A DNA stretch of 64,000 nt from Solirubrobacterales bacterium. Lineage in GTDB: Bacteria; Actinomycetota; Thermoleophilia; Solirubrobacterales; Solirubrobacteraceae. Shown here one piece after another: positions 5,355 through 24,043 of this stretch. Within the stretch, counting starts at the first letter, position 1. Every line of letters starts with the position of its first letter. The stretch lies in the NCBI GenBank assembly GCA_003133565.1, contig PKYB01000076.1, forward strand, positions 10,093 to 74,092, read 5' to 3'. A program made the position numbers and the translations under genes. Under the pieces are notes generated by a model that saw only the letters and a program-made list of their open reading frames with translations, was not told the origin of the DNA and searched no databases.

Positions 5355-6128
5355 GTGGCACAACGGGAGCAGCAGGTCATCGGCGGCTCCCTTGAGAGTG
5401 AGGTCGCGGCGCTACAGGAGGCGCTCGACCGCCACCGTGTTGAGGATGCCGCCAAGGAGCGCCAGCTCGATCGCTACGCCGCCGAGCTGCGCGCAACGTC
5501 CAGGCGTGAGCGTCACCGCGCGCGGGAGCTCGACGACTCCTACATGGCCACCGTGCGTGCTCTCTCAAACGCCGTCGAGGCGCGCGACGCCTACACCGCG
5601 CATCACGCCGAGCGCGTCGCCGCCTTTGGCGTAGAGATCGCCGCCGTGAGCGGGCTCCCGCTCTCGAGCCAACCCGAGATCGAGTTTGGCTTCCTCCTGC
5701 ACGACGTCGGCAAGGTCGCGGTCCCCGACGCCATCCTCTTCAAGCCCGGCAGGCTCGACGCCACAGAGCTCGAGATCATGCGACGCCACCCGGTCATCGG
5801 CGAGGAGATCATCGCCGGGATCGCCTTCCTCGGCCCGGCCACGGAGGTCGTCCGCCACCACCACGAGCGCTGGGATGGCAGCGGATACCCGGATGGACTC
5901 GCGGGCGAGGAGATCCCGCTCGCCGCGCGCGTGTTCGCGCTCGCCGATGCGCTCGATGCACTGACGAGTGACCGCCCCTACCGCGACGCGGTCACGATCG
6001 CGCAGGCGCGCCGGATCCTCCACCAAAGCCCCGGGCACTTCGATCCGGCTGTGCTTGATGCCTTCGAGCAGATCTCCGACGCGCGGCTCGAAGAGATCCG
6101 ACGCCAGAGCGCGGACGAGGCTATCTAG
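5355..6128 (+). CDS. HD-GYP domain protein (c-di-GMP phosphodiesterase family)
   Basis: HHAERVAAFG, LLHDVGKVAVPD, HHERWDGSGYPDGL. Confidence 0.85.
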   Translation: MAQREQQVIGGSLESEVAALQEALDRHRVEDAAKERQLDRYAAELRATSRRERHRARELDDSYMATVRALSNAVEARDAYTAHHAERVAAFGVEIAAVSGLPLSSQPEIEFGFLLHDVGKVAVPDAILFKPGRLDATELEIMRRHPVIGEEIIAGIAFLGPATEVVRHHHERWDGSGYPDGLAGEEIPLAARVFALADALDALTSDRPYRDAVTIAQARRILHQSPGHFDPAVLDAFEQISDARLEEIRRQSADEAI

Positions 6129-7744
6129 TCGCCGGACGCGCGTCGCCTGGCGGCCCGCAGCAACCGCTTCGCCGCAGGCTCGGGGTGCTCGGGTGTGGTT
6201 GAAGCCCTGCGGCCGTAGAGCAGCTTCAGCCAGCGCCCGATCAGCTTGGTCATCCACGCCGAGTAGGCATACATCTGCGGCTCGCGGCGGGGCATCCAAC
6301 GGGGCGTGATCAGAATCGTCTGCTGGCTCGCGAACTTGCGGATGCCGTCGGGCCCGTGCCGCACGCCGAGGCCTGACTGCTTGACGCCGCCCATCGGCGC
6401 TTCGAGTGCGAAGTAGTTGATCGCGGCGTCGTTGACGCAAACCGCGCCGACTGCCAGACGGCGCGCGACGCGCTCCCCCTCCGCGGCGTCGCGCGCAAAC
6501 ACCGCGGCGCCGAGGCCATAGCGCGAATCGTTGAGCAGCGCTACCGCGGCGTCCTCGTCGGCAACGCGCATGACCGCCAGCGTCGGGCCAAATGTCTCCT
6601 CGTTCATGCAGGCCATCGTGTGGTCGGTGTCGACGAGCAACGTCGGCTCGAAGAAGCGGCCTGACCGCTCGCCGCGGCGGTCACCGGCGAGCAGCCGCGC
6701 GCCCTTGGCAAGCGCATCGGCGACGTGGGCCTCGATCGTGTCGAGCTGACGCTCATCGGTGATCGCCCCCACATCAACCGATCCCGGGCCATGTGGCGCG
6801 CCGTAGCGCAGCGCCGCAACCTTCTCCGCGAGCTTGGCAGTGAACTCGCTATAGATCGTCGATTCGGCGTAGACGCGCTCGAGCGAGACGCAGGCCGCGC
6901 CGCTGTTCATCATCGCGTAGAACACCGCAACGTTGGCAGCCCGTTCGAGGTCCGCGCCGTCGAGCACGATCAGCGCATCCTTGCCGCCGAGCTCAAGCGA
7001 GACAGGGGTCAGGGTCTGCGCCGCGCGGAGCGCGACAGCGCGTCCGGTGGCGATCGAGCCGGTGAACATGACGAAGTCGACGAGGTCGACGAGCGCCGCG
7101 CCGGTCTCGCCACCGCCGGGCGCGACCTGGAAGACAGCGTCGGGAATGCCGCACTCGGCCCCCGCCTCGGCCATCAGCAAGGAGGTCAGCGGTGTGAGCT
7201 CGGACGGCTTGAGAATCACGCTATTGCCGGCCATCAGCGCCGGGATGCAGTCACCGAAGGAGTTGACTAGCGGGTAGTTCCACGGCCCGATTACGCCGAC
7301 CAGGCCGCGCGGCACGTAGCGCGTTACGAGGCGTCTGCCGGCGAGGAGCGGCGTGTGCGCAAAAAAGCGCTGTTCTTGGAGGTAGCGCGGCGCGTTACGC
7401 GTCCAGAACGACAAGGCGGCAAGGCCGTAGCCCAAGTCGTACAGCTGCGCGTCCTCGTAGGGCTTGCCGGTCTCGCTGATCACCGTCTCGATGACGCGCT
7501 CGGAATTCTCTGAGAGCCAGCGACGCAGCGCTCCGAGGATCACCGCACGTCCGCCCACGCCGAGCTCGGACCACGCCGGCTGCGCCGCGCGCCCGCGCTG
7601 CGCCAGCAGCTCGAGCCCAGCATCGTCAACGCATGCCACGCTCGCCACATACGCACCCGTCGCCGGGTTGCGCACTTCAATCGAGCTGCCGCCGACCGCC
7701 TTGCCGTTCGGAGCGATCAAGGCCTGCTTCTCGGCACCTTCCAC
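6125..7744 (-). CDS. NAD(P)-dependent aldehyde dehydrogenase (succinate-semialdehyde dehydrogenase-like)
   Basis: ALDH motifs FTGSIATGR, LELGGKDA, EETFGP; 539 aa. Confidence 0.9.
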   Translation of the reverse strand: MEGAEKQALIAPNGKAVGGSSIEVRNPATGAYVASVACVDDAGLELLAQRGRAAQPAWSELGVGGRAVILGALRRWLSENSERVIETVISETGKPYEDAQLYDLGYGLAALSFWTRNAPRYLQEQRFFAHTPLLAGRRLVTRYVPRGLVGVIGPWNYPLVNSFGDCIPALMAGNSVILKPSELTPLTSLLMAEAGAECGIPDAVFQVAPGGGETGAALVDLVDFVMFTGSIATGRAVALRAAQTLTPVSLELGGKDALIVLDGADLERAANVAVFYAMMNSGAACVSLERVYAESTIYSEFTAKLAEKVAALRYGAPHGPGSVDVGAITDERQLDTIEAHVADALAKGARLLAGDRRGERSGRFFEPTLLVDTDHTMACMNEETFGPTLAVMRVADEDAAVALLNDSRYGLGAAVFARDAAEGERVARRLAVGAVCVNDAAINYFALEAPMGGVKQSGLGVRHGPDGIRKFASQQTILITPRWMPRREPQMYAYSAWMTKLIGRWLKLLYGRRASTTPEHPEPAAKRLLRAARRRASGD

Positions 7745-7782
7745 CGCGCCTCCTGTGCTCGCGAGAACGGACCACGCGGAGT

Positions 7783-8241
7783 CTACGCCGCGATGCTCAC
7801 GCTCTCGATCAGCACCGGATTCGTCGGGCGGTCACCGCCGTCGGTCTCGACCGCCTCGATCGCGTCGACGACGTCCATACCGTCGCTCACGCGCCCGAAC
7901 ACGGTGTGCTTGCCATCGAGCCACGCGCATTCGTTGGCCGTGACGATGAAAAACTGTGAGCCGTTCGTGTTCGGTCCGGCGTTGGCCATCGCGAGCACGC
8001 CGCGGACGATCCGGTGCGAGTTGAACTCGTCATCGAAGGTGTAGCCGGGGCCGCCGGTTCCGGTTCCCTGCGGGCACCCCGCCTGGAGCATGAAGCCGCG
8101 GATCACGCGGTGGAAAATCAGGCCGTCGTAGAAACCCTTGCCGGCGAGCGTGGTGAAGTTCTCAACCGTTTTCGGCGCGTCGTCATCGAACAGCTCGAGC
8201 ACGATCGGCCCTTCGGAGGTGGTGATGGTGGCGAGAGACAT
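7783..8241 (-). CDS. Peptidyl-prolyl cis-trans isomerase, cyclophilin type
   Basis: FHRVIRGFMLQAGCPQGTGTGGPGYTFDDEF, GSQFFIVT. Start moved from track 8277 to ATG 8241, which has GGAG about 8 nt upstream. Confidence 0.9.
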   Translation of the reverse strand: MSLATITTSEGPIVLELFDDDAPKTVENFTTLAGKGFYDGLIFHRVIRGFMLQAGCPQGTGTGGPGYTFDDEFNSHRIVRGVLAMANAGPNTNGSQFFIVTANECAWLDGKHTVFGRVSDGMDVVDAIEAVETDGGDRPTNPVLIESVSIAA

Positions 8242-17734: not shown

Positions 17735-19111
17735 CTAGTGGACGGCGGCGGCGTAGAAAGCCGCCTCCTGGCGTCCGAGCTCGGTCGCCGGGGGATCGCC
17801 AAAGATCCATTCGCGCGCGATCCTGTGCCAGTTGCCGCGTGCGTGAAGCTGTCCCATCACCGCCAGCGTGAGCGTCTCGGTCCGCCGTCCGAACAGATGG
17901 TCGGGCGGCAGGTTTTCGTGGCGCATCTGCTTGTAGTGGCGCGAGCGCGGATCCGACATATCGATCACGATCTGGGTCGCGATCTCCGGCGTCAGCTCGA
18001 TCTCCTCGTCGCGCGTGTACCACCAGGTGACGTCCTGAAACTGACGGACGATGTCCTGCGGGGTGTAGCGCGTCGGGTCGGGCAGGAACCCGCCGGCGTG
18101 CAGGTGCTCGATTAGCGCCTCGCCGTCGCCGAGAATCCCGCGGCGCGCAATCTCGAGCTCGTAATCGGCGACCGATGCGGGGATCCGCTTGAACAGGCCG
18201 AAGTCCAGGAACGCGACGCGCCCGTCATCCAGTGCCAGGAAATTCCCCGGGTGCGGGTCGCCCGAGAACTGGTGGTGGCGGTACATGCAACCGAAGTAGA
18301 AGCGAAAGATGATCTCGGCGAGGCGGTCGCGCTCGGCCGCCGGTCGTCGTTTGAGGACCTCGAACCCGGTGCCCTCGACGTATTCGCCAACGAGCACGCG
18401 CTCGCGTGAGAGGACGACGTCGGGGACGAAGATGAAGGGGTGGCCACGGAAGATCCGGGCCATCGCGCGCTGGTTGGCTGCCTCGAGCTCGTAATCGAGC
18501 TCTTCGGAGATCCGCTCGCGGACCTCCTGCCCGATGGCCTGCGCGTCGAGCTCCGGAGCCAGCCGCCCCATCAGGCGGATGATCATGCCGAAGTTCTGGA
18601 GGTCCGCGCGCACGGCGGCAGCCGCGCCCGGGTACTGCACCTTCACTGCCACGTCGCGACCGTCGGGGAGGCGCGCGCGATAGACCTGCCCGATCGAGGC
18701 CGACGCGATCGGCTCGGAGTCGAATTCGGCGAAGCTGCTCTGCAGCGGCGCCTCGAGCTCCGTCTCGACCACCGCGCGCATGTCCTCGAAGGGGACTGGC
18801 GGCGCGCCGTCGCGGAGCTCCCCGAGCTTGCGCTGAAACTCCTCGCGGTACTGCTCGCCGACGAGGCCGACGTCAAGGAAGGACATCACCTGACCGAGCT
18901 TCATCGCCGCGCCCTTCATCGTCCCGAGAACGGCCACGATCTGCTCGGCCGTTTCGATGTGCCGACGCGCAAGCGCCTCCTCGCTACCCTCCTCGCCGCG
19001 CGTCAGGTTGGCCGCCCGGGTGCCAAGCTGCTTGGCCGCGGTGCCGGCGGCAAGCCGACCAATCGTCGCGGTGCGGCGGATGCGCGAAGTCGGAATTTGC
19101 TCGCGAGTCAT
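17735..19111 (-). CDS. ABC1/UbiB-family atypical kinase
   Basis: EPIASASIGQVYRARLPDGRDVAVKVQYPG. Start at ATG 19111, 13 nt after the upstream gene stop. Confidence 0.85.
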   Translation of the reverse strand: MTREQIPTSRIRRTATIGRLAAGTAAKQLGTRAANLTRGEEGSEEALARRHIETAEQIVAVLGTMKGAAMKLGQVMSFLDVGLVGEQYREEFQRKLGELRDGAPPVPFEDMRAVVETELEAPLQSSFAEFDSEPIASASIGQVYRARLPDGRDVAVKVQYPGAAAAVRADLQNFGMIIRLMGRLAPELDAQAIGQEVRERISEELDYELEAANQRAMARIFRGHPFIFVPDVVLSRERVLVGEYVEGTGFEVLKRRPAAERDRLAEIIFRFYFGCMYRHHQFSGDPHPGNFLALDDGRVAFLDFGLFKRIPASVADYELEIARRGILGDGEALIEHLHAGGFLPDPTRYTPQDIVRQFQDVTWWYTRDEEIELTPEIATQIVIDMSDPRSRHYKQMRHENLPPDHLFGRRTETLTLAVMGQLHARGNWHRIAREWIFGDPPATELGRQEAAFYAAAVH

Positions 19112-19124
19112 CCGCGCAGCCGCC

Positions 19125-19889
19125 TTAGTCGCCCGCGCCCACGCGCTCCACGCGCGAGCCGGGCACGATGTCATCTGCACCATTCGGCCAACGCACCCAG
19201 GCCTTGTGGCCGCCGTCGTAATCGACGGCGAGGAGGATCAACGTGGCCGGGTCACCAAGCGCGATGCACGGCTCGGAGCCTTCGCGATCGAGACCGCGCC
19301 AGATGCGAATGAACGGGTTGTGCGCCCACTCCCTTCCGACCGTGCTTGGGTCGCTGTGCCCGGGGTTGACCTCCGTCTCGTGGTCGAGCTCCATCAGCGT
19401 GCCCATGATCGAGTCCTTCAACGCCTGGTAGGTGTCGTGACCGGGCGCCCGCACCCCGCCAACCGAGTCGCGGAAGAGCGTGTCACCGGTAAACACGCCA
19501 GTCGTCCCGTCGTGCTCGACAAAGAACGAGAGCATCCCAGTCGTGTGGCCAGGGGTGTGCAGCGGACGGACCCGCAGCTCCCCTACCTCGAGCCGCTGCG
19601 TCGCGTCGACCGGCCCGGTCGCACTCTGGACGAGGTCCAGCTCGAGCGGGTGGATCAGCACCTCGAGCTGGGGCCAGCGGGACAACAGCACCGGAACCTC
19701 GGCGACGTGGTCGTGGTGGTGATGGGTGAGCAAGACATATCGGGGAACCACCTCGAGGCGCTCGGCGGCTGCGATCAGCGGCTCAACGGGGCCCCCCGCA
19801 TCGATCACGACGGCAGACCCCTCGGGCTTGTCGGTCACCAGGTAACTGTTGGACAGGTACCCCGCATGCATCGAGCGCTCGACGAGCAT
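19125..19889 (-). CDS. MBL-fold metallohydrolase (glyoxalase II-like)
   Basis: LLTHHHHDHVAEV, HTPGHT. Start at ATG 19889 (GAGGA about 9 nt upstream), which avoids overlapping the divergent gloA. Confidence 0.85.
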   Translation of the reverse strand: MLVERSMHAGYLSNSYLVTDKPEGSAVVIDAGGPVEPLIAAAERLEVVPRYVLLTHHHHDHVAEVPVLLSRWPQLEVLIHPLELDLVQSATGPVDATQRLEVGELRVRPLHTPGHTTGMLSFFVEHDGTTGVFTGDTLFRDSVGGVRAPGHDTYQALKDSIMGTLMELDHETEVNPGHSDPSTVGREWAHNPFIRIWRGLDREGSEPCIALGDPATLILLAVDYDGGHKAWVRWPNGADDIVPGSRVERVGAGD

Positions 19890-19956
19890 CGACCCATCCT
19901 CGCACGCTGCGAGAAGCGGCGTATCGAGCTTTTGCGTCGACCTTAGACTGTCGATC

Positions 19957-20340
19957 GTGGCGTTTCTGCACACCTGCTACCGCATCACCGATATCGAGCG
20001 CTCGCTCGCTTTTTACCGCGCGCTCGGCTTCGAGGAGACGCGTCGGGCGCCGATCCGCGACGAGGCGATCAACGTATTCCTCAACCAACCCGGCGACGGC
20101 GACGAGTCGCGGCTCGAGCTGACCTACAACTTCGGCGTCGAAAGCTACGAGCTCGGCAATGCCTACGGCCACATTGCGATCTCCTCCGTAGACCTCGATC
20201 AAACACTCGCAGAACTGGCAGCACTTGGCATCGAACCCGAGCGCCCCCCCTACACCGTGCGCGCAGGGGGCGCACGGCTGTGCTTCGTTCGAGACCCTGA
20301 CGGGTACCGAATAGAAGTAGTAGAACGGAAGCCGGAGTAG
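19957..20340 (+). CDS. gloA: Lactoylglutathione lyase / VOC-family glyoxalase I
   Basis: VAFLHTCYRITDIERSLAFYRALGFEE...GNAYGHIAI...CFVRDPDGYRIEVVERKPE. GTG start at 19957. Confidence 0.85.
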   Translation: MAFLHTCYRITDIERSLAFYRALGFEETRRAPIRDEAINVFLNQPGDGDESRLELTYNFGVESYELGNAYGHIAISSVDLDQTLAELAALGIEPERPPYTVRAGGARLCFVRDPDGYRIEVVERKPE

Positions 20341-20342
20341 CT

Positions 20343-20723
20343 ATGGGGGCCGCAGAGACTCAGGACGAGATCAAGCGGAACGCGCAGCCGCTCCTCCAGC
20401 CGGGCGAAGAAATCCAAGCCGCAATCCTCGCCCAGACGTTCAACTCGCTCGTGACGCTTCTCCTCGGGCCGGTAATCGTCTTCGGCAAGCCGTTTCGACC
20501 GATCGTGGTCACCAACCGGAGGATCCTCGTGTTCCGATCAGGCGGCTTCCGCATGACGAAGCTGTCCGCGGCGTCCGACGAGCTTCCTCGCAACACCCCC
20601 CTCGGACCAGCGTCCGGCCGCCGCTGGTATCGGACGACCGCACTTGGTCGACCGATTTACATCTTCCCGAGCTTCTACGGCGAGGTCGCAGCCGCCGATG
20701 CTGCGATCCAGGCGCCACCCTGA
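20343..20723 (+). CDS. Hypothetical 126-aa protein (cassette 1)
   Basis: The ATG lies 2 nt after the gloA stop. Sequence ...PIVVTNRRILVFRSGGF... Its TGA stop lies inside the second copy of the gloA 3-prime repeat. Confidence 0.5.
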   Translation: MGAAETQDEIKRNAQPLLQPGEEIQAAILAQTFNSLVTLLLGPVIVFGKPFRPIVVTNRRILVFRSGGFRMTKLSAASDELPRNTPLGPASGRRWYRTTALGRPIYIFPSFYGEVAAADAAIQAPP

Positions 20724-20760
20724 CGGGTACCGTGTGGAAATAGTAGAACGGTCCGCGTAG
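20716..20760 (+). repeat. gloA 3-prime-end repeat, copy B
   Basis: caccctgacgggtaccgtgtggaaatagtagaacgg matches gloA 20293-20328 at 31/36 positions. In its own frame it reads PDGYRVEIVERSA-stop. Confidence 0.85.
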
Positions 20761-20858
20761 GGGCTCGCGACCTCCGGCCCCCGGGGCGCCTCGGCGAGCG
20801 TGGGGCCCCGCGAATCGCTAGTTTGCGCACTAGGCAGGCTAACCAGAGGGGGAGTGTC

Positions 20859-21272
20859 ATGGGTGAGCAGAGTGTCGAGTTCCTGAAGGGCCTCTATGCG
20901 GCCTTTGGTCGAGGCGACGTGCCAGCCGTACTCGGCGGATGGGCGGACGACATCGAATGGAATGAGGCCGAGGGAATGCCCTATGGCGGCGTATACCGCG
21001 GCGGCGACGCGGTGGTGCAGAGCGTCTTTGGCCCGATCGCCACAGACGTGGAGGGTTTCGCGGTCACGCCCGAGGAGTTCGTCGGGTCCGGTGAGACCGT
21101 CGCCGTGGTCGTCCGCTACACCGGTACCGGCAAGGTGACCGGGAAGAGCCTGGACGTTCCCGTCGTGCACGTGTGGGATATCCGCGACGGCAAGATCACA
21201 CGCTTCCGACAGTTCATCGACACGGTGAGATTCGCGGAGGTTGTGCCAGCGGACGTCTCTGTCGCGGCGTAA
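20859..21272 (+). CDS. SnoaL-like / NTF2-fold protein (cassette 2)
   Basis: MGEQSVEFLKGLYAAFGRGDVPAVLGGWADDIEWNEAEG...VVHVWDIRDGKITRFRQFIDT. GGGGGAG lies upstream of ATG 20859. Confidence 0.8.
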   Translation: MGEQSVEFLKGLYAAFGRGDVPAVLGGWADDIEWNEAEGMPYGGVYRGGDAVVQSVFGPIATDVEGFAVTPEEFVGSGETVAVVVRYTGTGKVTGKSLDVPVVHVWDIRDGKITRFRQFIDTVRFAEVVPADVSVAA

Positions 21273-21285
21273 GAGCGACGGATCA

Positions 21286-21348
21286 ATGCCGGACCCTGAC
21301 GGCTATCGAATTGAGATCGTTGAGCGATCCGACGATGCGGGCCGCTAA
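21286..21348 (+). repeat. gloA 3-prime-end repeat, copy C (intact 20-codon mini-ORF MPDPDGYRIEIVERSDDAGR)
   Basis: The core 21292-21327 matches the gloA end at 27/36 positions. Eight of the 9 differences are at third codon positions. Confidence 0.8.
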
Positions 21349-21439
21349 GCCCGCGGTCGTTGCGAAAAATCACATGCGGGCGCGCAAGTCGGGTTATGCT
21401 CGCCTCCGCCGCCGTCCACTCCGTTCAGAGGGAGCACGT

Positions 21440-21842
21440 ATGTCGGTAGAGGAAAACGTCCAGACAGCGCAAGCAGGCTATGCAGCGTTCGGCCGCGGCG
21501 ATGTACCCGCGATTCTCGAGCTGCTCACAGACGACATCGAATGGATCGAGCCCGGCCCGCCGGACGTCATTCCGACCGCCGGAACGCATCGCGGCAAGGA
21601 AGAGGTGGGCAGGTTTCTTCGCCACTCTCGGCGAGGACGTGGAGTTTCACAAGTTCGAACCGCAGGAGTTCATTGCGCAGGGCGACCACCTGGTCGTGCT
21701 GATCTCTTCCGATGCCACACTGACGCGCACCGGCCGCAAGCTCACCGATCACGTGGCACACGTCTGGACCTTCAAGGGCGGCAAGGTCGCGCGTTTCGAG
21801 ATCTTCCAGGACACGGCCGCGATCGTCGCCGCCTACAGCTGA
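21440..21842 (+). pseudogene. SnoaL-like / NTF2-fold gene with +1 frameshift (cassette 3)
   Basis: The N-terminus MSVEENVQTAQAGYAAFGRGDVPAILELLTDDIEWIEPG...KEEVGRF is in one frame. The C-terminus FFATLGEDVEFHKFEPQEFIAQGDHLVVL...VWTFKGGKVARFEIFQDTAAIVAAYS is in the next frame. The switch is at the T run 21614-21616, and removing one T gives a 133-aa paralogue of cassette 2. Confidence 0.7.
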
Positions 21843-21866
21843 CGTGACATGACAGCTCGGACTGAC

Positions 21867-21927
21867 CCGCAGGGCGGTCCGCTGCTGTGCGTCAGGTCCA
21901 CGGCTACCGCGTGGAATGGTAGAAGCG
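21867..21927 (+). repeat. gloA 3-prime-end repeat, copy D (degenerate, about 60 nt)
   Basis: cgcagggcggtccgctgctgtgcgtcaggtccacggctaccgcgtggaatggtagaagcg aligns to gloA 20262-20328 (GGARLCFVRDPDGYRIEVVER) with small indels. Confidence 0.65.
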
Positions 21928-21986
21928 TCGAGCTACCGGCAGATTGGTCCGTGTACACGGACCCGGCCGGCGAGTAAAGCTCCCGT

Positions 21987-22280
21987 CTAGGCCGACGCCG
22001 TGTCGGGGTCCGGACGCACGATGACCGTGTCGGCAACGGCAATGATCTCGTCTACGGGCAGGTCTGCCCGCGAAGCGTGATCGCGGATCGCGGCCGGACT
22101 GCTCGCCTGGTAGATGCATACCGTCCCTACTGACCCGCCGTCCTCTTCCAGCACGTAGCTGCGAATCCAACGAATGTCGTCTGGCATCTCGTCGCCCACC
22201 TTCGTAGAGCGCTCAGCTGCCGCCTGCAGATCTTCGGGCGACCGCCAGCCGTTGCGTCGGAGAATCACGTAGGTGTTCAT
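21987..22280 (-). CDS. DUF4242-like small protein
   Basis: MNTYVILRRNGWRSPEDLQAAAERSTKVGDEMPDDIRWIRSYVLEEDGGSVGTVCIYQASSPAAIRDHASRADLPVDEI. GGGGAGAAGG lies directly upstream of the ATG. Confidence 0.7.
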   Translation of the reverse strand: MNTYVILRRNGWRSPEDLQAAAERSTKVGDEMPDDIRWIRSYVLEEDGGSVGTVCIYQASSPAAIRDHASRADLPVDEIIAVADTVIVRPDPDTASA

Positions 22281-22590
22281 CCTTCTCCCCTCGTTTGGCG
22301 CGGTTCGAAAGACTTTTATTCCAACAGGAGCCGGCGGTCAAGAGCACCAGCCATACGCGCCTCCGCCAGGTTTGATCCTGTCCGCGGCGGGTATCTAAAG
22401 GGCGGTGCCCCGCCGCCCGTGGCCGCGGCACACCACATCTTCGAGGGTGTACGCGAAAGGGAACGCGGATGGTTGACCGGGGTGCGGGTGTGTTTGAACC
22501 GTCACCTGGCCGGCTCGATGCTTGGCAGCCATAACTCAAGCGACCCGGGTCACTGAGACGTTCGTGATGAATCGGCTGCCGGCAGGGCGG

Positions 22591-23364
22591 CTAGGCCGCC
22601 TGCGGGCCTTGTGCATACATCAGCGAGCCGGGCGTGGTGAGCGTTTCCCCGGTTTCCAACAGCGTCTTTAGACCGGAGAGAATCATCGGCCAGCCGCCGT
22701 AGATCTGGGCGTTTGCTTGCTCGCTTAGCTCGTCGTGCGTGACGGTCAGCCGGCACGAGTCGCCGACCGGCTCGATCTCCCAGGTGACTCTCGAGGTCTT
22801 CTCGTGCTTGACGTCCTCGCCCCACAGCGCGTTGAAGCTCTGGACGAGGCGGTGCGGAGGATCGACCTCGAGGTTCACGCCCTCCATCATCGGCGAGCCG
22901 GCGGCGGGGTGAATGCCCTGGTAGGGCGAGCCCGGCGTCCATTCCGAGCTGACACCGACGCCAAACGTGTACTTCTGGCGCATCTCGCTGTCGGTAATCG
23001 CGTTCCAGAGGCGTTTGGGTGTCGTCTTGATGTAGATCTCAAATACCTTCTCCATGGGTTGCTCCTCAATTGTCAGCTTGAGCGCGCTGAGCGTCGCGGC
23101 CCAGGGCTCGGCGTACTTGCTCACCCACCTGTCGTAGACGAGCCGGATCGGGACGGGGTTCAGGAAGTGGAGCTTCTCGCGGCCGCGCTTCTTGGTGACC
23201 ACGAGACCTGCGTCCTCGAGCACACGTAGATGCTTCATAACGCCGAAGCGGGTCATCGGTAGGCGCTGTTCGAGCATGGTGAGCGTCTGTCCGTCCTGCT
23301 TGAACAACTCGTCGAGCAGGCCGCGGCGTGTGGGATCGGCAAGCGCCTTGAACACGTCGTCCAT
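22591..23364 (-). CDS. ArsR-family HTH regulator fused to an SRPBCC (AHSA1/START-like) domain
   Basis: MDDVFKALADPTRRGLLDELFKQDGQTLTMLEQRLPMTRFGVMKHLRVLEDAGLV, followed by an SRPBCC-like half. Start at ATG 23364. Confidence 0.85.
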   Translation of the reverse strand: MDDVFKALADPTRRGLLDELFKQDGQTLTMLEQRLPMTRFGVMKHLRVLEDAGLVVTKKRGREKLHFLNPVPIRLVYDRWVSKYAEPWAATLSALKLTIEEQPMEKVFEIYIKTTPKRLWNAITDSEMRQKYTFGVGVSSEWTPGSPYQGIHPAAGSPMMEGVNLEVDPPHRLVQSFNALWGEDVKHEKTSRVTWEIEPVGDSCRLTVTHDELSEQANAQIYGGWPMILSGLKTLLETGETLTTPGSLMYAQGPQAA

Positions 23365-23372
23365 ACCCCGAC

Positions 23373-23400
23373 GATATATGACGATATGGTCACGTGTCAA
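23373..23400 (-). promoter_or_regulatory. Candidate sigma-70-type promoter (TTGACA, 16 nt, TATATC) giving a leaderless or near-leaderless ArsR-SRPBCC mRNA
   Basis: The minus strand reads TTGACAcgtgaccatatcgtcaTATATCgtcggggtATG. It is overlapped by direct repeats GTGACCATAT x2 and ATATCGTC x2, in an AT-rich patch of a GC-rich genome. Confidence 0.45.
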
Positions 23401-23470
23401 TATGGTCACATGCGAAGCGGGCCCCGAACCTCCCCTTACCGCCACGGCGCCTTCGAGTAGACGCCGTCTC

Positions 23471-24043
23471 TCAGCCGTCTGAGGGGATGCCTTTTTGCAC
23501 CGACTCGACGTGCAGGTAGACGGGGCCACGACGCGAGCAGCCGCGGAACGGGAAGGGCACAACGCTCGACACGGTCTGATTCGGCGGATAGACGCGCAAT
23601 CCGGCCGCGGTCACCGGGCCGCACTGACGCGGCGAGAAGGCGCCTACATCGGTGATCCCGAGCACGGCGGTCGCGGTTGCGCCCGCCATGCTCGCCGAAG
23701 TGCCGCTGGCGAGCGTGACGACACGCACCGCATTTGCGGGGTTGCGCCCGGCCGCGCTGCCGAGCTGGGATCCGCTGAGGCTGACGCCTGAGACTCCGGG
23801 GTAGCCGGTGAGCGTGCAAGCGTGCGCGGAAAGATTCGTGAATTCAAGGTCGAAGTAGTCCGTGCCGGCCGTGCCTCCGCCTGGCGGGTTGGCCAGCCAG
23901 ATCACGAGCCCGGACTTCGCGCAGGCCGGCGTGCGAGCCGCGGCGACGGCGGTGAGCATTAGCGCCGCCAGGAGGACGCCAGCGCAGATAATCGCCGCCG
24001 CGCTGCCGATCAGTTGCCTCAACGAGAATGCCGGCCGGTACAT
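23471..24043 (-). CDS. Secreted/membrane-anchored DUF4232-like protein
   Basis: MYRPAFSLRQLIGSAAAIICAGVLLAALML...CAKSGLVIWLANPPGGGTAGTDYFDLEFTNLSAHACTLTGYPGVS. GGGGGAG lies upstream of ATG 24043. Confidence 0.7.
   Translation of the reverse strand: MYRPAFSLRQLIGSAAAIICAGVLLAALMLTAVAAARTPACAKSGLVIWLANPPGGGTAGTDYFDLEFTNLSAHACTLTGYPGVSGVSLSGSQLGSAAGRNPANAVRVVTLASGTSASMAGATATAVLGITDVGAFSPRQCGPVTAAGLRVYPPNQTVSSVVPFPFRGCSRRGPVYLHVESVQKGIPSDG

Follow-up and report, generated by a model that had tools for sequence, protein, structure and literature searches.

The 3′ end of gloA as a possible entry site for gene cassettes in Solirubrobacterales

Members of the Solirubrobacterales carry arrays of small gene cassettes downstream of gloA, a glyoxalase I-like gene, on the same strand and separated by repeats that resemble the gene's own 3′ end. 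Such arrays are found in about 11 of 80 Solirubrobacterales genomes and on about 42 metagenome contigs (the metagenome scan returned 44 stretches, of which about 42 are true arrays). The array described here in detail lies in a 64,000-nt stretch of a Solirubrobacterales genome, hereafter called the window, where three cassettes follow gloA. We propose that these chromosomal cassette arrays have their primary site at the 3′ end of gloA, where circular cassettes are recombined by a trans-encoded recombinase. This reading is evenly poised in our judgment, and the alternatives are weighed below alongside the evidence that bears on each of them.

The anchor gene of the array, gloA (19957–20340, plus strand), encodes a VOC protein of 127 aa (Pfam Glyoxalase PF00903, E 4e-17), and its last codons form the insertion site. 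The gene call is present in public assemblies of the same organism, in which the start corresponds to position 19957 and to none further upstream. Eighty orthologous loci were collected. The conserved left flank is a metallo-beta-lactamase (MBL)-fold gene (gloB-like; 19125–19889, minus strand; Pfam Lactamase_B), which is divergent from gloA and syntenic in most of the 80 loci. On the right, the array is bounded by a SCO4226-like gene (21987–22280, minus strand; Pfam PF14026) convergent with gloA, a flank also present in loci L088, L086 and L091 and on a zero-cassette contig of run X12. Across the loci, the neighbours of gloA are the MBL-fold gene or purD, together with cassette genes.

The original prediction, that the last 36 nt of gloA recur downstream on the same strand, holds for copies A (20293–20328), B (20716–20751) and C (21292–21327). 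These can be read directly from the sequence and are returned by a repeat finder as family D1, with start-to-start spacings of 423 and 576 nt. The codon-degenerate pattern PDGYR[IV]E[IV]VER matches exactly these three copies in the 64-kb window and has 0 matches in 100 dinucleotide-preserving shuffles. Copy A (DPDGYRIEVVER, then KPE-stop at 20338–20340) is the tail now used by gloA and is built of AT-rich rare codons. Alignment confirms the predicted identities to copy A of 31/36 for B and 27/36 for C; B and C share 25/36. A codon-by-codon comparison likewise reproduces the pattern described for C against A, with eight changes at third positions and a ninth, V to I by GTA to ATC, at a first position. 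Copy B reads PDGYRVEIVERSA-stop, with the stop at 20758–20760, and the translations proposed earlier for the two downstream copies are correct: B ends ..HPDGYRVEIVERSA and C, within the mini-ORF 21286–21348, reads MPDPDGYRIEIVERSDDAGR, each followed by a stop, the latter after 20 codons.

Three genes lie between the copies, all on the plus strand and co-oriented with gloA. The first, orf126 (20343–20723), starts 2 nt after the gloA stop and ends at the TGA within CCCTGACGG of copy B, as the original prediction had it. It encodes a hypothetical protein of 126 aa that belongs to no Pfam family and has only 7 homologues among 5.8 billion proteins. The second, SnoaL-1 (20859–21272, 137 aa), carries a SnoaL_2 domain (Pfam E 2.5e-18). 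The third, SnoaL-2 (21440–21842), is a SnoaL_2 paralogue, also recognised by Pfam, in an older unit common to relatives; it bears the predicted frameshift, a +1 shift at a T run near 21612–21614. SnoaL-2 is intact (133 aa) in L088, and the extra base is missing in a related strain of run X12. No promoter-like or terminator-like sites were found inside the window array, every array junction is covered by metatranscriptome contigs that match the window at 100% identity, and the three cassette genes appear to be transcribed together with gloA.

Comparison with related strains, which the original prediction had called for, shows that in close relatives whose flanks are identical the site is either empty or only partly filled. 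Exactly 999 bp bounded by copies A and C are missing from L088/L089 (flanks 93.7% identical at the nucleotide level) and from L086 (90.7%), where only tail C and SnoaL-2 lie between the same flanks. By blastn, window positions 19000–20327 correspond to L088 4044–5371 and positions 21292–22360 to L088 5337–6403, the 35 nt at L088 5337–5371 aligning to both copy A and copy C. The 36-nt repeat makes the placement of this plus-strand insertion ambiguous: the orf126 and SnoaL-1 units occupy 20293–21291 or, equally, 20329–21327. The full array is present in L091, L081 and L082 (99.7% identical), and a more distant relative in run X12 has zero cassettes, with about 230 nt from the gloA stop to the SCO4226 flank. 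The result is a series of 0, 1 and 3 cassettes between identical flanking genes. Elsewhere, gloA is fused to SnoaL-1 in L001 (85% nucleotide identity there, against 77% for the flanks) and to tail C with SnoaL-2 in L002, and a D-type tail is in use in L003.

Because relatives have only tail C and SnoaL-2 between the same flanks, copy C is the native gloA end of the window lineage (21292–21327, now displaced), with A and B imported. Copy C is 33/36 identical to the tail of L088 and 32/36 to that of L086, to which copy A matches at only 30 and 29 positions, and the spacer 3′ of copy C is orthologous to those of L088, L086 and L002. The earlier idea that copy C derives from another VOC gene is overturned by this orthology. 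The imported tails have affinities of their own. The distal part of copy A (..CCGGAGTAG-NN-ATG) accompanies orf126 in L083 and L136, where orf126 homologues are likewise flanked by gloA-tail sequence; the gene is absent from L088 and L086. The proximal 33 nt of copy B are identical at 30/33 positions to the tail right of the orf126 homologue in L136, and its distal part and spacer are collinear with L001. SnoaL-1 lies directly 3′ of gloA in L001 (91% aa), L012, L020 and L035, and is displaced by other cassettes in L009 and L011.

Copy D (21867–21976, plus strand) is of a long VPEG..GAT tail type. The fourth repeat claimed in the original prediction (about 21867–21927) is faint by itself: nhmmer misses it, its local alignment to gloA scores 22 against 16.3 ± 2.5 in shuffles, and its leftward extension, which apparently carries about 35 nt of gloA body, is equalled in 30 of 1000 shuffles. 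It becomes credible through relatives, because it is nearly identical in L088 and because the remnant at the same position in L002 (RYRVEMVGRAPEGLIDQPG) matches the intact gloA tail of L003 (YRIELVERVPEGVIDQPG). We therefore regard copy D as a probable decayed remnant of an older gloA end. The unit of tail C and SnoaL-2 is older than the other two units, and copy D is older still. Its left edge is different from, and longer than, that of the other copies, and the four copies thus did not all originate in the same mode.

The extra gene body that copy D may retain, and VOC proteins encoded by some cassettes in L098 and L104, could be taken as traces of a decayed tandem array of VOC paralogues and their cargo, each VOC body having been deleted to the same point. 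This second reading of the original prediction is refuted by the criterion that the prediction itself had set, and we give it practically no weight. Where the window has B, C or D, no relative carries a full-length VOC gene; relatives show clean states of 0, 1 and 3 units instead. The sequences left of B and C have no similarity to the gloA body. Left edges coincide, too: those of about 17 additional copies in 10 genome loci lie within 10 nt of one another, at positions 141–150 of a 186-nt profile of the gloA 3′ end. In the arrays generally, the repeats begin within a few bases of GACGG.

Beyond the window, arrays are found in L014, L036, L106, L108, L113, L115, L120 and L131, among others, with up to 4 or 5 sites per array. 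Cassettes range from 0.15 to 3 kb, and about 50 of them cluster at 0.55–0.8 kb. Each is compact and holds a single gene or toxin-antitoxin pair, with the site beginning at the stop codon or a few bases past it. Many cassette genes outside the window are on the opposite strand. The products include VapBC and HicAB toxin-antitoxin pairs, SnoaL, VOC and SRPBCC proteins, a methyltransferase and small proteins of no assigned function, and these contents match those typical of chromosomal cassette arrays. The C-termini of gloA itself fall into distinct types of tail, which have been exchanged between backbones of the gene: the KPE tail is found on backbones 98% and 80% identical to the gloA of the window, and backbones of 93% and 89% identity bear other tails.

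Integrative elements classically show the same architecture: the target gene is left intact, its 3′ end is repeated directly, and elements accrete in tandem. The units could accordingly be eroded remnants of larger elements (ICE, AICE, prophage or island) whose own integrase was lost by internal deletion, so that only cargo between att repeats was left, much like the CIMEs at fda and the pseudo-SCC elements at rlmH; a few larger inserts, of 3.2 kb in L003 and 2.4 kb in L036, would suit such an origin. We consider it improbable. Neither the 80 genome loci (6 kb downstream) nor the roughly 44 metagenome stretches contained an integrase-bearing element at gloA. In search of a phage or prophage attP, 2.9 million IMG/VR viral contigs were scanned for the tail pattern; the one match, in an unrelated VOC gene, was irrelevant, and this candidate was rejected. 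Moreover, the cassettes are compact and cluster in size as described, and they hold no gene fragments of the kind that random deletions would leave.

In the largest family of repeats, the gloA tail is only one part of a sharply bounded site of about 60 nt, the other being a 25-nt part that does not belong to gloA (TGAGTTGCAAACCGTCCACTAGCTC). The original view of the repeat as a gene end falls short for this family; the window's own cassettes do not have the 25-nt part, which speaks against the mechanism that we favour. The consensus in the metagenome set is TGAGTTGCAAACCGtCCaCtA.CTCGAcGGgTAccG.gTcGAGaT..T.GAG, and information content drops to zero on either side of it. The site is always on the gloA strand and lies downstream of gloA wherever the contig extends far enough upstream. 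Although dispensable for homology to gloA, the left part reaches a conservation of 2 bits per position, which is what a putative protein-binding site would look like. In L056 it is joined, within about 5 nt of the usual junction, to a 5′-truncated monooxygenase gene, which looks like a secondary-site event. Its resemblance to the gloA codons for LCFVRDP amounts to about 48% across 21 nt, and in the last 13 nt, oddly, every other base matches; this is suggestive of a distant derivation and is not significant.

The tails are mosaic. The proximal part of copy B goes with orf126 (as in L136) and the distal part with SnoaL-1 (as in L001), and the left tail of L136 is L088-like proximally and A-like distally. 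When the crossover was mapped from the polymorphisms that distinguish copies A to C and the tails of five loci (L088, L086, L001, L136 and L083), a patchwork with no single breakpoint emerged. Breakpoints thus fall at more than one nucleotide, a pattern that homologous recombination or gene conversion also fits. The general homologous recombination of the host might then build and reshuffle the array, with circles formed between repeats, their re-entry by single crossovers within 36–60 nt, gene conversion that keeps the repeats alike and a common left edge inherited from one founding duplication. Homogenised repeats within arrays (41 nt identical in L056; identical in L036, L106 and L120) agree with this, as do the different left edge of copy D, the lack of structure in the site and the lack of a recombinase nearby, the last two of which are detailed below.

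We nevertheless find this explanation rather unlikely. At least eight unrelated sequences abut the tail on its left within a span of 3–10 nt, which a founder effect leaves unexplained. The conserved 25-nt left part shares little with gloA and would have been of no help to a first insertion. Efficient RecA recombination usually requires a minimum length at or above that offered by 36 nt with 5–9 mismatches, the extent of the repeats here. Finally, the deletion breakpoint in L056 coincides with the site junction. For the original prediction of serial insertion at an att-like gene end, the empty and partly filled sites and the recurrence of the arrays bear out the insertions themselves, and their site-specific character is likely, short of certain given the mosaic tails.

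The sites have no conserved fold. Folded as single-stranded DNA, 8 sites had z-scores between −1.2 and +0.7 relative to shuffles and formed no attC-like hairpin, and a consensus fold of 37 sites has three invariant pairs and no covariation. The sole structure at the junction is a dyad of 4–5 bp, ACCC-NGAC-GGGT. Neither the window region nor any of 6 loci matched an Rfam model at E ≤ 1. A structured, attC-like site or RNA was dropped as a candidate on these grounds. A tRNA-like origin of the TTGCAAACCG motif was rejected by eye, as the flanking stem is absent.

A crude regular-expression scan for tyrosine and serine recombinase motifs in the window and about 135 loci detected only one Xer-like gene, 3 kb upstream of gloA in L029. 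The statement that no recombinase is nearby thus stands for the window itself and, apart from this gene, for the loci scanned. Reading the ORFs in the variable regions of the 80 loci disclosed no recombinase inside or beside the arrays, and upstream of gloA there is purD, again with no integrase gene. Public metagenome and metatranscriptome contigs, which hide rare variants, yielded neither circular nor excised forms. The one informative joint in these runs belongs to the more distant zero-cassette relative and is not a deletion form. A joint between the two SnoaL genes in run X19 was disregarded, as one of its sides is only 25 nt long. Nothing relevant was found in the literature on glyoxalase or gloA as an integration site, or on integrons in Solirubrobacterales.

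In the mechanism that we favour, cassettes would enter as circles whose own site recombines with the last ~36 nt of gloA. The gloA-like tail borne by each cassette would keep gloA intact after every insertion, and the previous end would be pushed downstream as a direct repeat. The recombinase would act in trans and recognise a double-stranded sequence around ..ACCC-NGAC-GGNTAY.., where junctions cluster. Circular intermediates, a dedicated trans-acting recombinase and the position of the crossover are the parts that we infer. In the window lineage, an old VPEG-type end (D) would first have been displaced by the unit of tail C and SnoaL-2. The 999 bp with the orf126 and SnoaL-1 units would have entered later, with A then serving as the gloA end and B and C left over as spares. 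Circles excised from the window array would be expected to bring the right end of a cassette up against its tail, as in ..GGCGCCAC joined to CCTGACGG..AAGCCGGAGTAG and ..GCCGGAC joined to CCTGACGG..TCCGCGTAG.

We further suggest, more tentatively, that the array represents an independently evolved gene-capture platform parallel to the integron, in which the last codons of a housekeeping gene would be the point of entry, the bipartite ~60-nt double-stranded site, with its 25 nt for recognition and its spare gene end, would take the place of attC and a candidate recombinase encoded elsewhere would move single-gene cassettes. The array does an integron-like job, by means of another type of site, in an abundant, poorly studied lineage of soil and peat. 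Should there be a dedicated recombinase, cassette capture would have been invented independently, and the enzyme might offer a new tool for site-specific recombination. If general recombination suffices, a gene-end repeat of 36–60 nt would be a self-perpetuating trap for foreign genes. Either way, the site offers a sequence signature by which cassettes can be found in metagenomes. The natural series of cassette numbers is also a test bed for how cassettes arise, a question relevant to integrons as well.

Several known systems share parts of this organization. Insertion into the 3′ end of a conserved housekeeping gene is typical of ICESt1/ICESt3 and the CIMEs at fda of Streptococcus thermophilus and of SCC and pseudo-SCC elements at rlmH/orfX of staphylococci. 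There, as at gloA, a replacement gene end is supplied, displaced ends are kept as direct repeats and elements stack in tandem; copies A and C bound the 999-bp insert in just this manner, the gloA frame remaining intact with tail A. Recombinase-less members of these families are moved in trans. They span kilobases to tens of kilobases, however, and a parent with an integrase or Ccr recombinase is known, whereas the gloA units are mostly single genes of about 0.6 kb, and about 50 cassettes come with no parent element in the searched loci and contigs. The gloA-array site also differs in its dedicated, conserved 25-nt part that does not belong to the gene.

The cargo arrays of tycheposons in Prochlorococcus islands are similar in that small cargo is separated by partial 3′ ends of the target and many segments have no recombinase. 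Their target is a tRNA gene, tycheposons with a tyrosine recombinase occur in the same islands and the host phylum is another; at gloA the target is a protein-coding end that must stay in frame. The XerC/XerD-dependent pdif modules, or IMEX, also resemble the gloA array, being small, often toxin-antitoxin-bearing modules with short sites and a recombinase encoded elsewhere. In contrast to pdif sites, which are 28-bp mimics of dif with two 11-bp arms around a 6-bp spacer and alternate in orientation, the gloA-array sites are direct repeats of about 60 nt with only the small ACCC-NGAC-GGGT dyad.

To our knowledge, among systems that store single-gene cassettes at one place in the chromosome, only integrons are well understood. 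As in integrons and CALINs, the gloA array has one chromosomal entry site followed by short cassettes on the same strand, each with a repeated site at its end. Within a lineage the sites are alike, close relatives differ in cassette content, and the array is rich in toxin-antitoxin pairs, small proteins of no assigned function and enzymes of the VOC/SnoaL/SRPBCC type. An array of mobile cassettes at the same site that differs between relatives, by which integrons are recognised, is seen here in the states with 0, 1 and 3 cassettes. As in CALINs, no integrase accompanies the array; integrons differ in this, no intI gene being adjacent to gloA by a crude motif scan. The site is not an attC, as it has neither R″-L″/L′-R′ inverted repeats nor a conserved hairpin; on the same evidence the array has none of the structurally recognisable attC sites, at least two of which define a CALIN. 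Half of it is coding sequence that completes the host gene, and entry occurs inside the last codons of a gene rather than beside an integrase promoter region. Integron cassettes are for the most part single ORFs without promoters that run with the array; the three window genes agree with this, while across the gloA arrays cassette genes are found in both orientations. The host belongs to the Actinomycetota (Thermoleophilia), a phylum from which we know of no integrons. The gloA array therefore resembles both integrons and tandem accretion at gene 3′ ends and is a member of neither.

The VOC/glyoxalase gene gloA (19957-20340, + strand; Pfam PF00903) heads an array in which its own 3′ end recurs on the same strand. 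Copy A (20293-20328), the final 36 nt of gloA ahead of a short KPE tail, is followed by copy B (20716-20751) and copy C (21292-21327), both read directly at these positions, and by copy D (about 21867-21927), a remnant of the gloA end. A repeat finder places copies A, B and C in one group, with spacings of 423 and 576 nt. The codon-degenerate pattern of the encoded peptide has three matches in 64 kb, exclusively copies A, B and C, and matches in 0 of 100 shuffles. Identities are 31/36 for A and B and 27/36 for A and C, as in the original prediction, and 25/36 for B and C; copy C differs from copy A at eight third codon positions and by a single V-to-I change. Rare AT-rich codons (ATA, GTA, AGA, TTG; for example CGAATAGAAGTAGTAGAACGG) occur in these tails (20305-20328 and 20728-20751) and at many other loci, in host genomes of ~70% G+C, while the gloA tails of cassette-free genomes mostly use the usual G+C-rich codons. 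These AT-rich codons could result from a constraint acting on the site's nucleotide sequence, or from a foreign origin.

A hypothetical 126-aa ORF, orf126 (20343-20723, + strand), begins 2 nt past the stop codon of gloA and terminates at the TGA within copy B. The two SnoaL-like genes that follow, SnoaL-1 between B and C and SnoaL-2 between C and D, both encode SnoaL_2 proteins, and the second carries the expected frameshift (+1 near 21612-21614), an extra T in a T run within 21600-21620. This frameshift is present in all assemblies of the window organism (L081, L082, L091) and absent from its relative L088 (intact, 133 aa) and from a related strain in sequencing run X12 (1 base fewer at 21614), so it is a genuine lineage-specific inactivation, not a sequencing error.

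A one-genome-per-species scan yielded 80 loci orthologous to gloA, almost all of them in metagenome-assembled genomes of Solirubrobacterales, and among the closest are three single-unit states. In L001, a B-like tail and then SnoaL-1 follow gloA directly (85% nt match to window 20712-21250; flanks 77%). In L002, gloA runs directly into tail C and SnoaL-2 (21292-21842 matched at 84%), followed by a D-like remnant still translating as RYRVEMVGRAPEGLIDQPG; the working gloA end of L003 is the same long tail (..ELVERVPEGVIDQPGTGQGVT*). Copy D is weak alone, being missed by nhmmer and reaching a local alignment score of 22 against 16.3 ± 2.5 in shuffles, but this match between the L002 remnant and the L003 tail lends it substance.

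Look-up of near-identical gloA proteins found much closer relatives. L091, L081 and L082, at 99.7% identity to the window, have the same array, frameshift included. The flanks of L088/L089 (93.7% nt identity) and L086 (90.7%) are arranged as in the window: PK, ABC1 kinase, an MBL-fold gene and gloA lie to one side, and a SCO4226-like gene, DUF4232, a 109-aa ORF and an ABC transporter to the other. All three loci have gloA directly joined to tail C and SnoaL-2. By blastn, window 19000-20327 corresponds to L088 4044-5371 and window 21292-22360 to L088 5337-6403, so the window is longer by 999 bp, which the 36-nt repeat delimits. Copy C matches the L088 and L086 tails at 33/36 and 32/36, copy A at 30/36 and 29/36, and the spacer downstream of copy C is orthologous to those of L088 and L086. 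Copy C, once thought to derive from another VOC gene, is thus the native gloA end, and copies A and B arrived with the insert. The zero-cassette state appears in run X12, where a 456-nt contig from a more remote relative passes from a gloA tail (..GATCGAGATCATCGAGCGCGGCTAG) through ~230 nt into the SCO4226 flank. Cassette presence hence varies from strain to strain, as the comparison of L088/L089, L086, the X12 contig and L091/L081/L082 makes plain, and no relative has a full-length VOC gene at B, C or D. This refutes the idea of a decayed tandem array of VOC genes and cargo; paralogue decay is now scarcely credible.

The gene-end repeats extend to other genomes. In peptide and nucleotide profile searches, L003, L011, L012, L014, L020, L036, L048, L056 and L059 showed additional gloA ends, on the same strand as gloA and downstream of it, and L078 a weak one. 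All begin at positions 141-150 of the 186-nt gloA 3′ profile, position 151 being the CCN of a Pro codon, and the sequences to their left have no relation to gloA or to one another. The motif TGAGTTGCAAACCG.CC..TA. is common to the left-hand sequence in L009, L011, L012, L014, L020 and L056. A metagenome scan for this motif with the tail returned 44 stretches, about 42 of them genuine, which align to a ~60-nt consensus, TGAGTTGCAAACCGtCCaCtA.CTCGAcGGgTAccG.gTcGAGaT..T.GAG. Information content falls to zero within 1-2 bases on either side, and the tail half varies at codon third positions, including in the portion that the search pattern left free. gloA lies upstream on the same strand in every stretch with upstream DNA present, and the largest arrays comprise gloA and 3 or 4 sites (L106, L108). 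Within the 25-nt non-gloA part, the right half (site HMM positions 13-25) matches the gloA body at alternate bases (CGTcCaCtAgCtC vs CGTgCgCgAcCcC). Two complete sites stand 58 bp apart in L036 (8720-8815), an 'empty' cassette, and a similar pair stands 148 bp apart in L108 (3723-3927).

Whatever the mechanism, there is good support for cassettes having inserted time and again at the gloA end, every one bringing a substitute end. Serial insertion at an att-like gene end, the first reading proposed, is largely right. The chances are about even that a dedicated site-specific recombinase acts in trans. Many independent junctions lie within a few bases of GACGG, where a small ACCC-NGAC-GGGT dyad is located, the site edges are sharp, the cassettes are compact, and the 25-nt part is strongly conserved though it is not gloA sequence. 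In L056 this part is joined at the usual junction to a truncated gene: at 7700-7800 the conserved left part (..GAGTTGCAAACCGACCATTA) is fused to a luciferase-like monooxygenase gene lacking its first ~100 codons and intact in L014, L010 and L027, a deletion ending at the site junction. However, a crude tyrosine/serine motif scan found no such recombinase gene in the window or about 135 loci, save a Xer-like gene 3 kb upstream of gloA in L029, and the site has neither a hairpin nor an Rfam match. That the cassettes are remnants of larger, integrase-bearing elements is quite improbable. General homologous recombination through RecA alone is a less likely mechanism than a dedicated enzyme, and it draws on the homogenisation of repeats within arrays and on mosaic tails. 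The first 33 nt of copy B match the tail right of the L136 orf126 homologue at 30/33 and L001 at 22/33, while its distal part and spacer are associated with SnoaL-1, as in L001; the left tail in L136 is proximally L088-like and distally A-like. Copy D also seems to hold ~35 nt extra of the gloA body, which implies a different edge in at least one old event.

The 52 inter-site segments catalogued are mostly 0.55-0.8 kb long (range 58 bp to 3.2 kb), with genes in both orientations. By Pfam they encode RHH+PIN and Phd+PIN (VapBC-type) pairs, HicA/HicB, frequent SnoaL-like proteins, VOC proteins, Polyketide_cyc2/AHSA1 (SRPBCC) proteins, one Methyltransf_24 enzyme, a nucleotidyltransferase-like protein, an aldo/keto reductase, a hydrolase-cyclase fusion, and small membrane or unknown proteins. 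The VOC/glyoxalase-family genes include a 145-aa ORF in L098 (PF00903) and a 125-aa ORF in L104 (VOC-like by eye only), and may hint at how a mobile site originally acquired a gloA-like tail. orf126 is rare (7 homologues among 5.8 billion proteins), and in two other contexts (L083, L136) its homologues still have gloA-tail sequence alongside. In L083, the context is without gloA and the tail sequence, to the left, is decayed; a group II intron reverse transcriptase (RVT_1 + GIIM; 5631-6974) lies 1.2 kb from the orf126 homologue. Four metatranscriptome runs from peat or permafrost yielded contigs that match the window at 100% identity and cover gloA into orf126, orf126 and copy B into SnoaL-1, SnoaL-1 across copy C, and SnoaL-2 across copy D. 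The window array showed no internal promoter-like or terminator-like sites. The simplest interpretation is that transcription reads through from gloA, with DNA contamination of the libraries possible.

A conserved 107-aa gene follows gloA after 10-50 nt at ~20 loci and after 0.8-5.6 kb at others, which marks this junction as a hotspot for variable DNA. It apparently collects insertion sequences too, as three IS-transposase-like ORFs (recognized by eye from their N-termini) lie downstream of gloA in L008 (6588-10707). gloA has a variable left side as well: its spacing from the MBL-fold gene ranges from 0.1 to 4 kb, with purD or other genes between them in many genomes (including L007, L009-L012, L015, L020, L021 and L035). 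Just past the array, the interval from the SCO4226-like gene to DUF4232 is a second variable spot. It holds an ArsR(HTH_20)-AHSA1 gene in the window (22300-23600), a sigma-70/DUF6596 gene, two YCII genes and a 96-aa ORF in L088 (6502-8799), and additional 170-aa and 217-aa ORFs in L086 (3108-3620, 5685-6338).

Neither gloA as an integration site nor cassette arrays in Solirubrobacterales were found described in the literature. Sedentary chromosomal integrons and CALINs combine one entry site, a same-strand array, repeated sites and toxin-antitoxin-rich cargo that differs between relatives. The gloA array shares all of these features but has neither intI nor attC structure, and so fails the defining tests of an integron. 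There is a real, though less than even, chance that it is a gene-capture system of integron type that arose independently and uses an undescribed recombinase. Tandem accretion at protein-gene 3′ ends is known from ICESt/CIME at fda and from SCC and pseudo-SCC at rlmH. Both these systems and the gloA array have a replacement gene end and direct repeats; the gloA units, in contrast, are single genes with no recombinase-bearing parent element. The gloA feature is best classed among site-anchored cassette arrays, as a variant of them.
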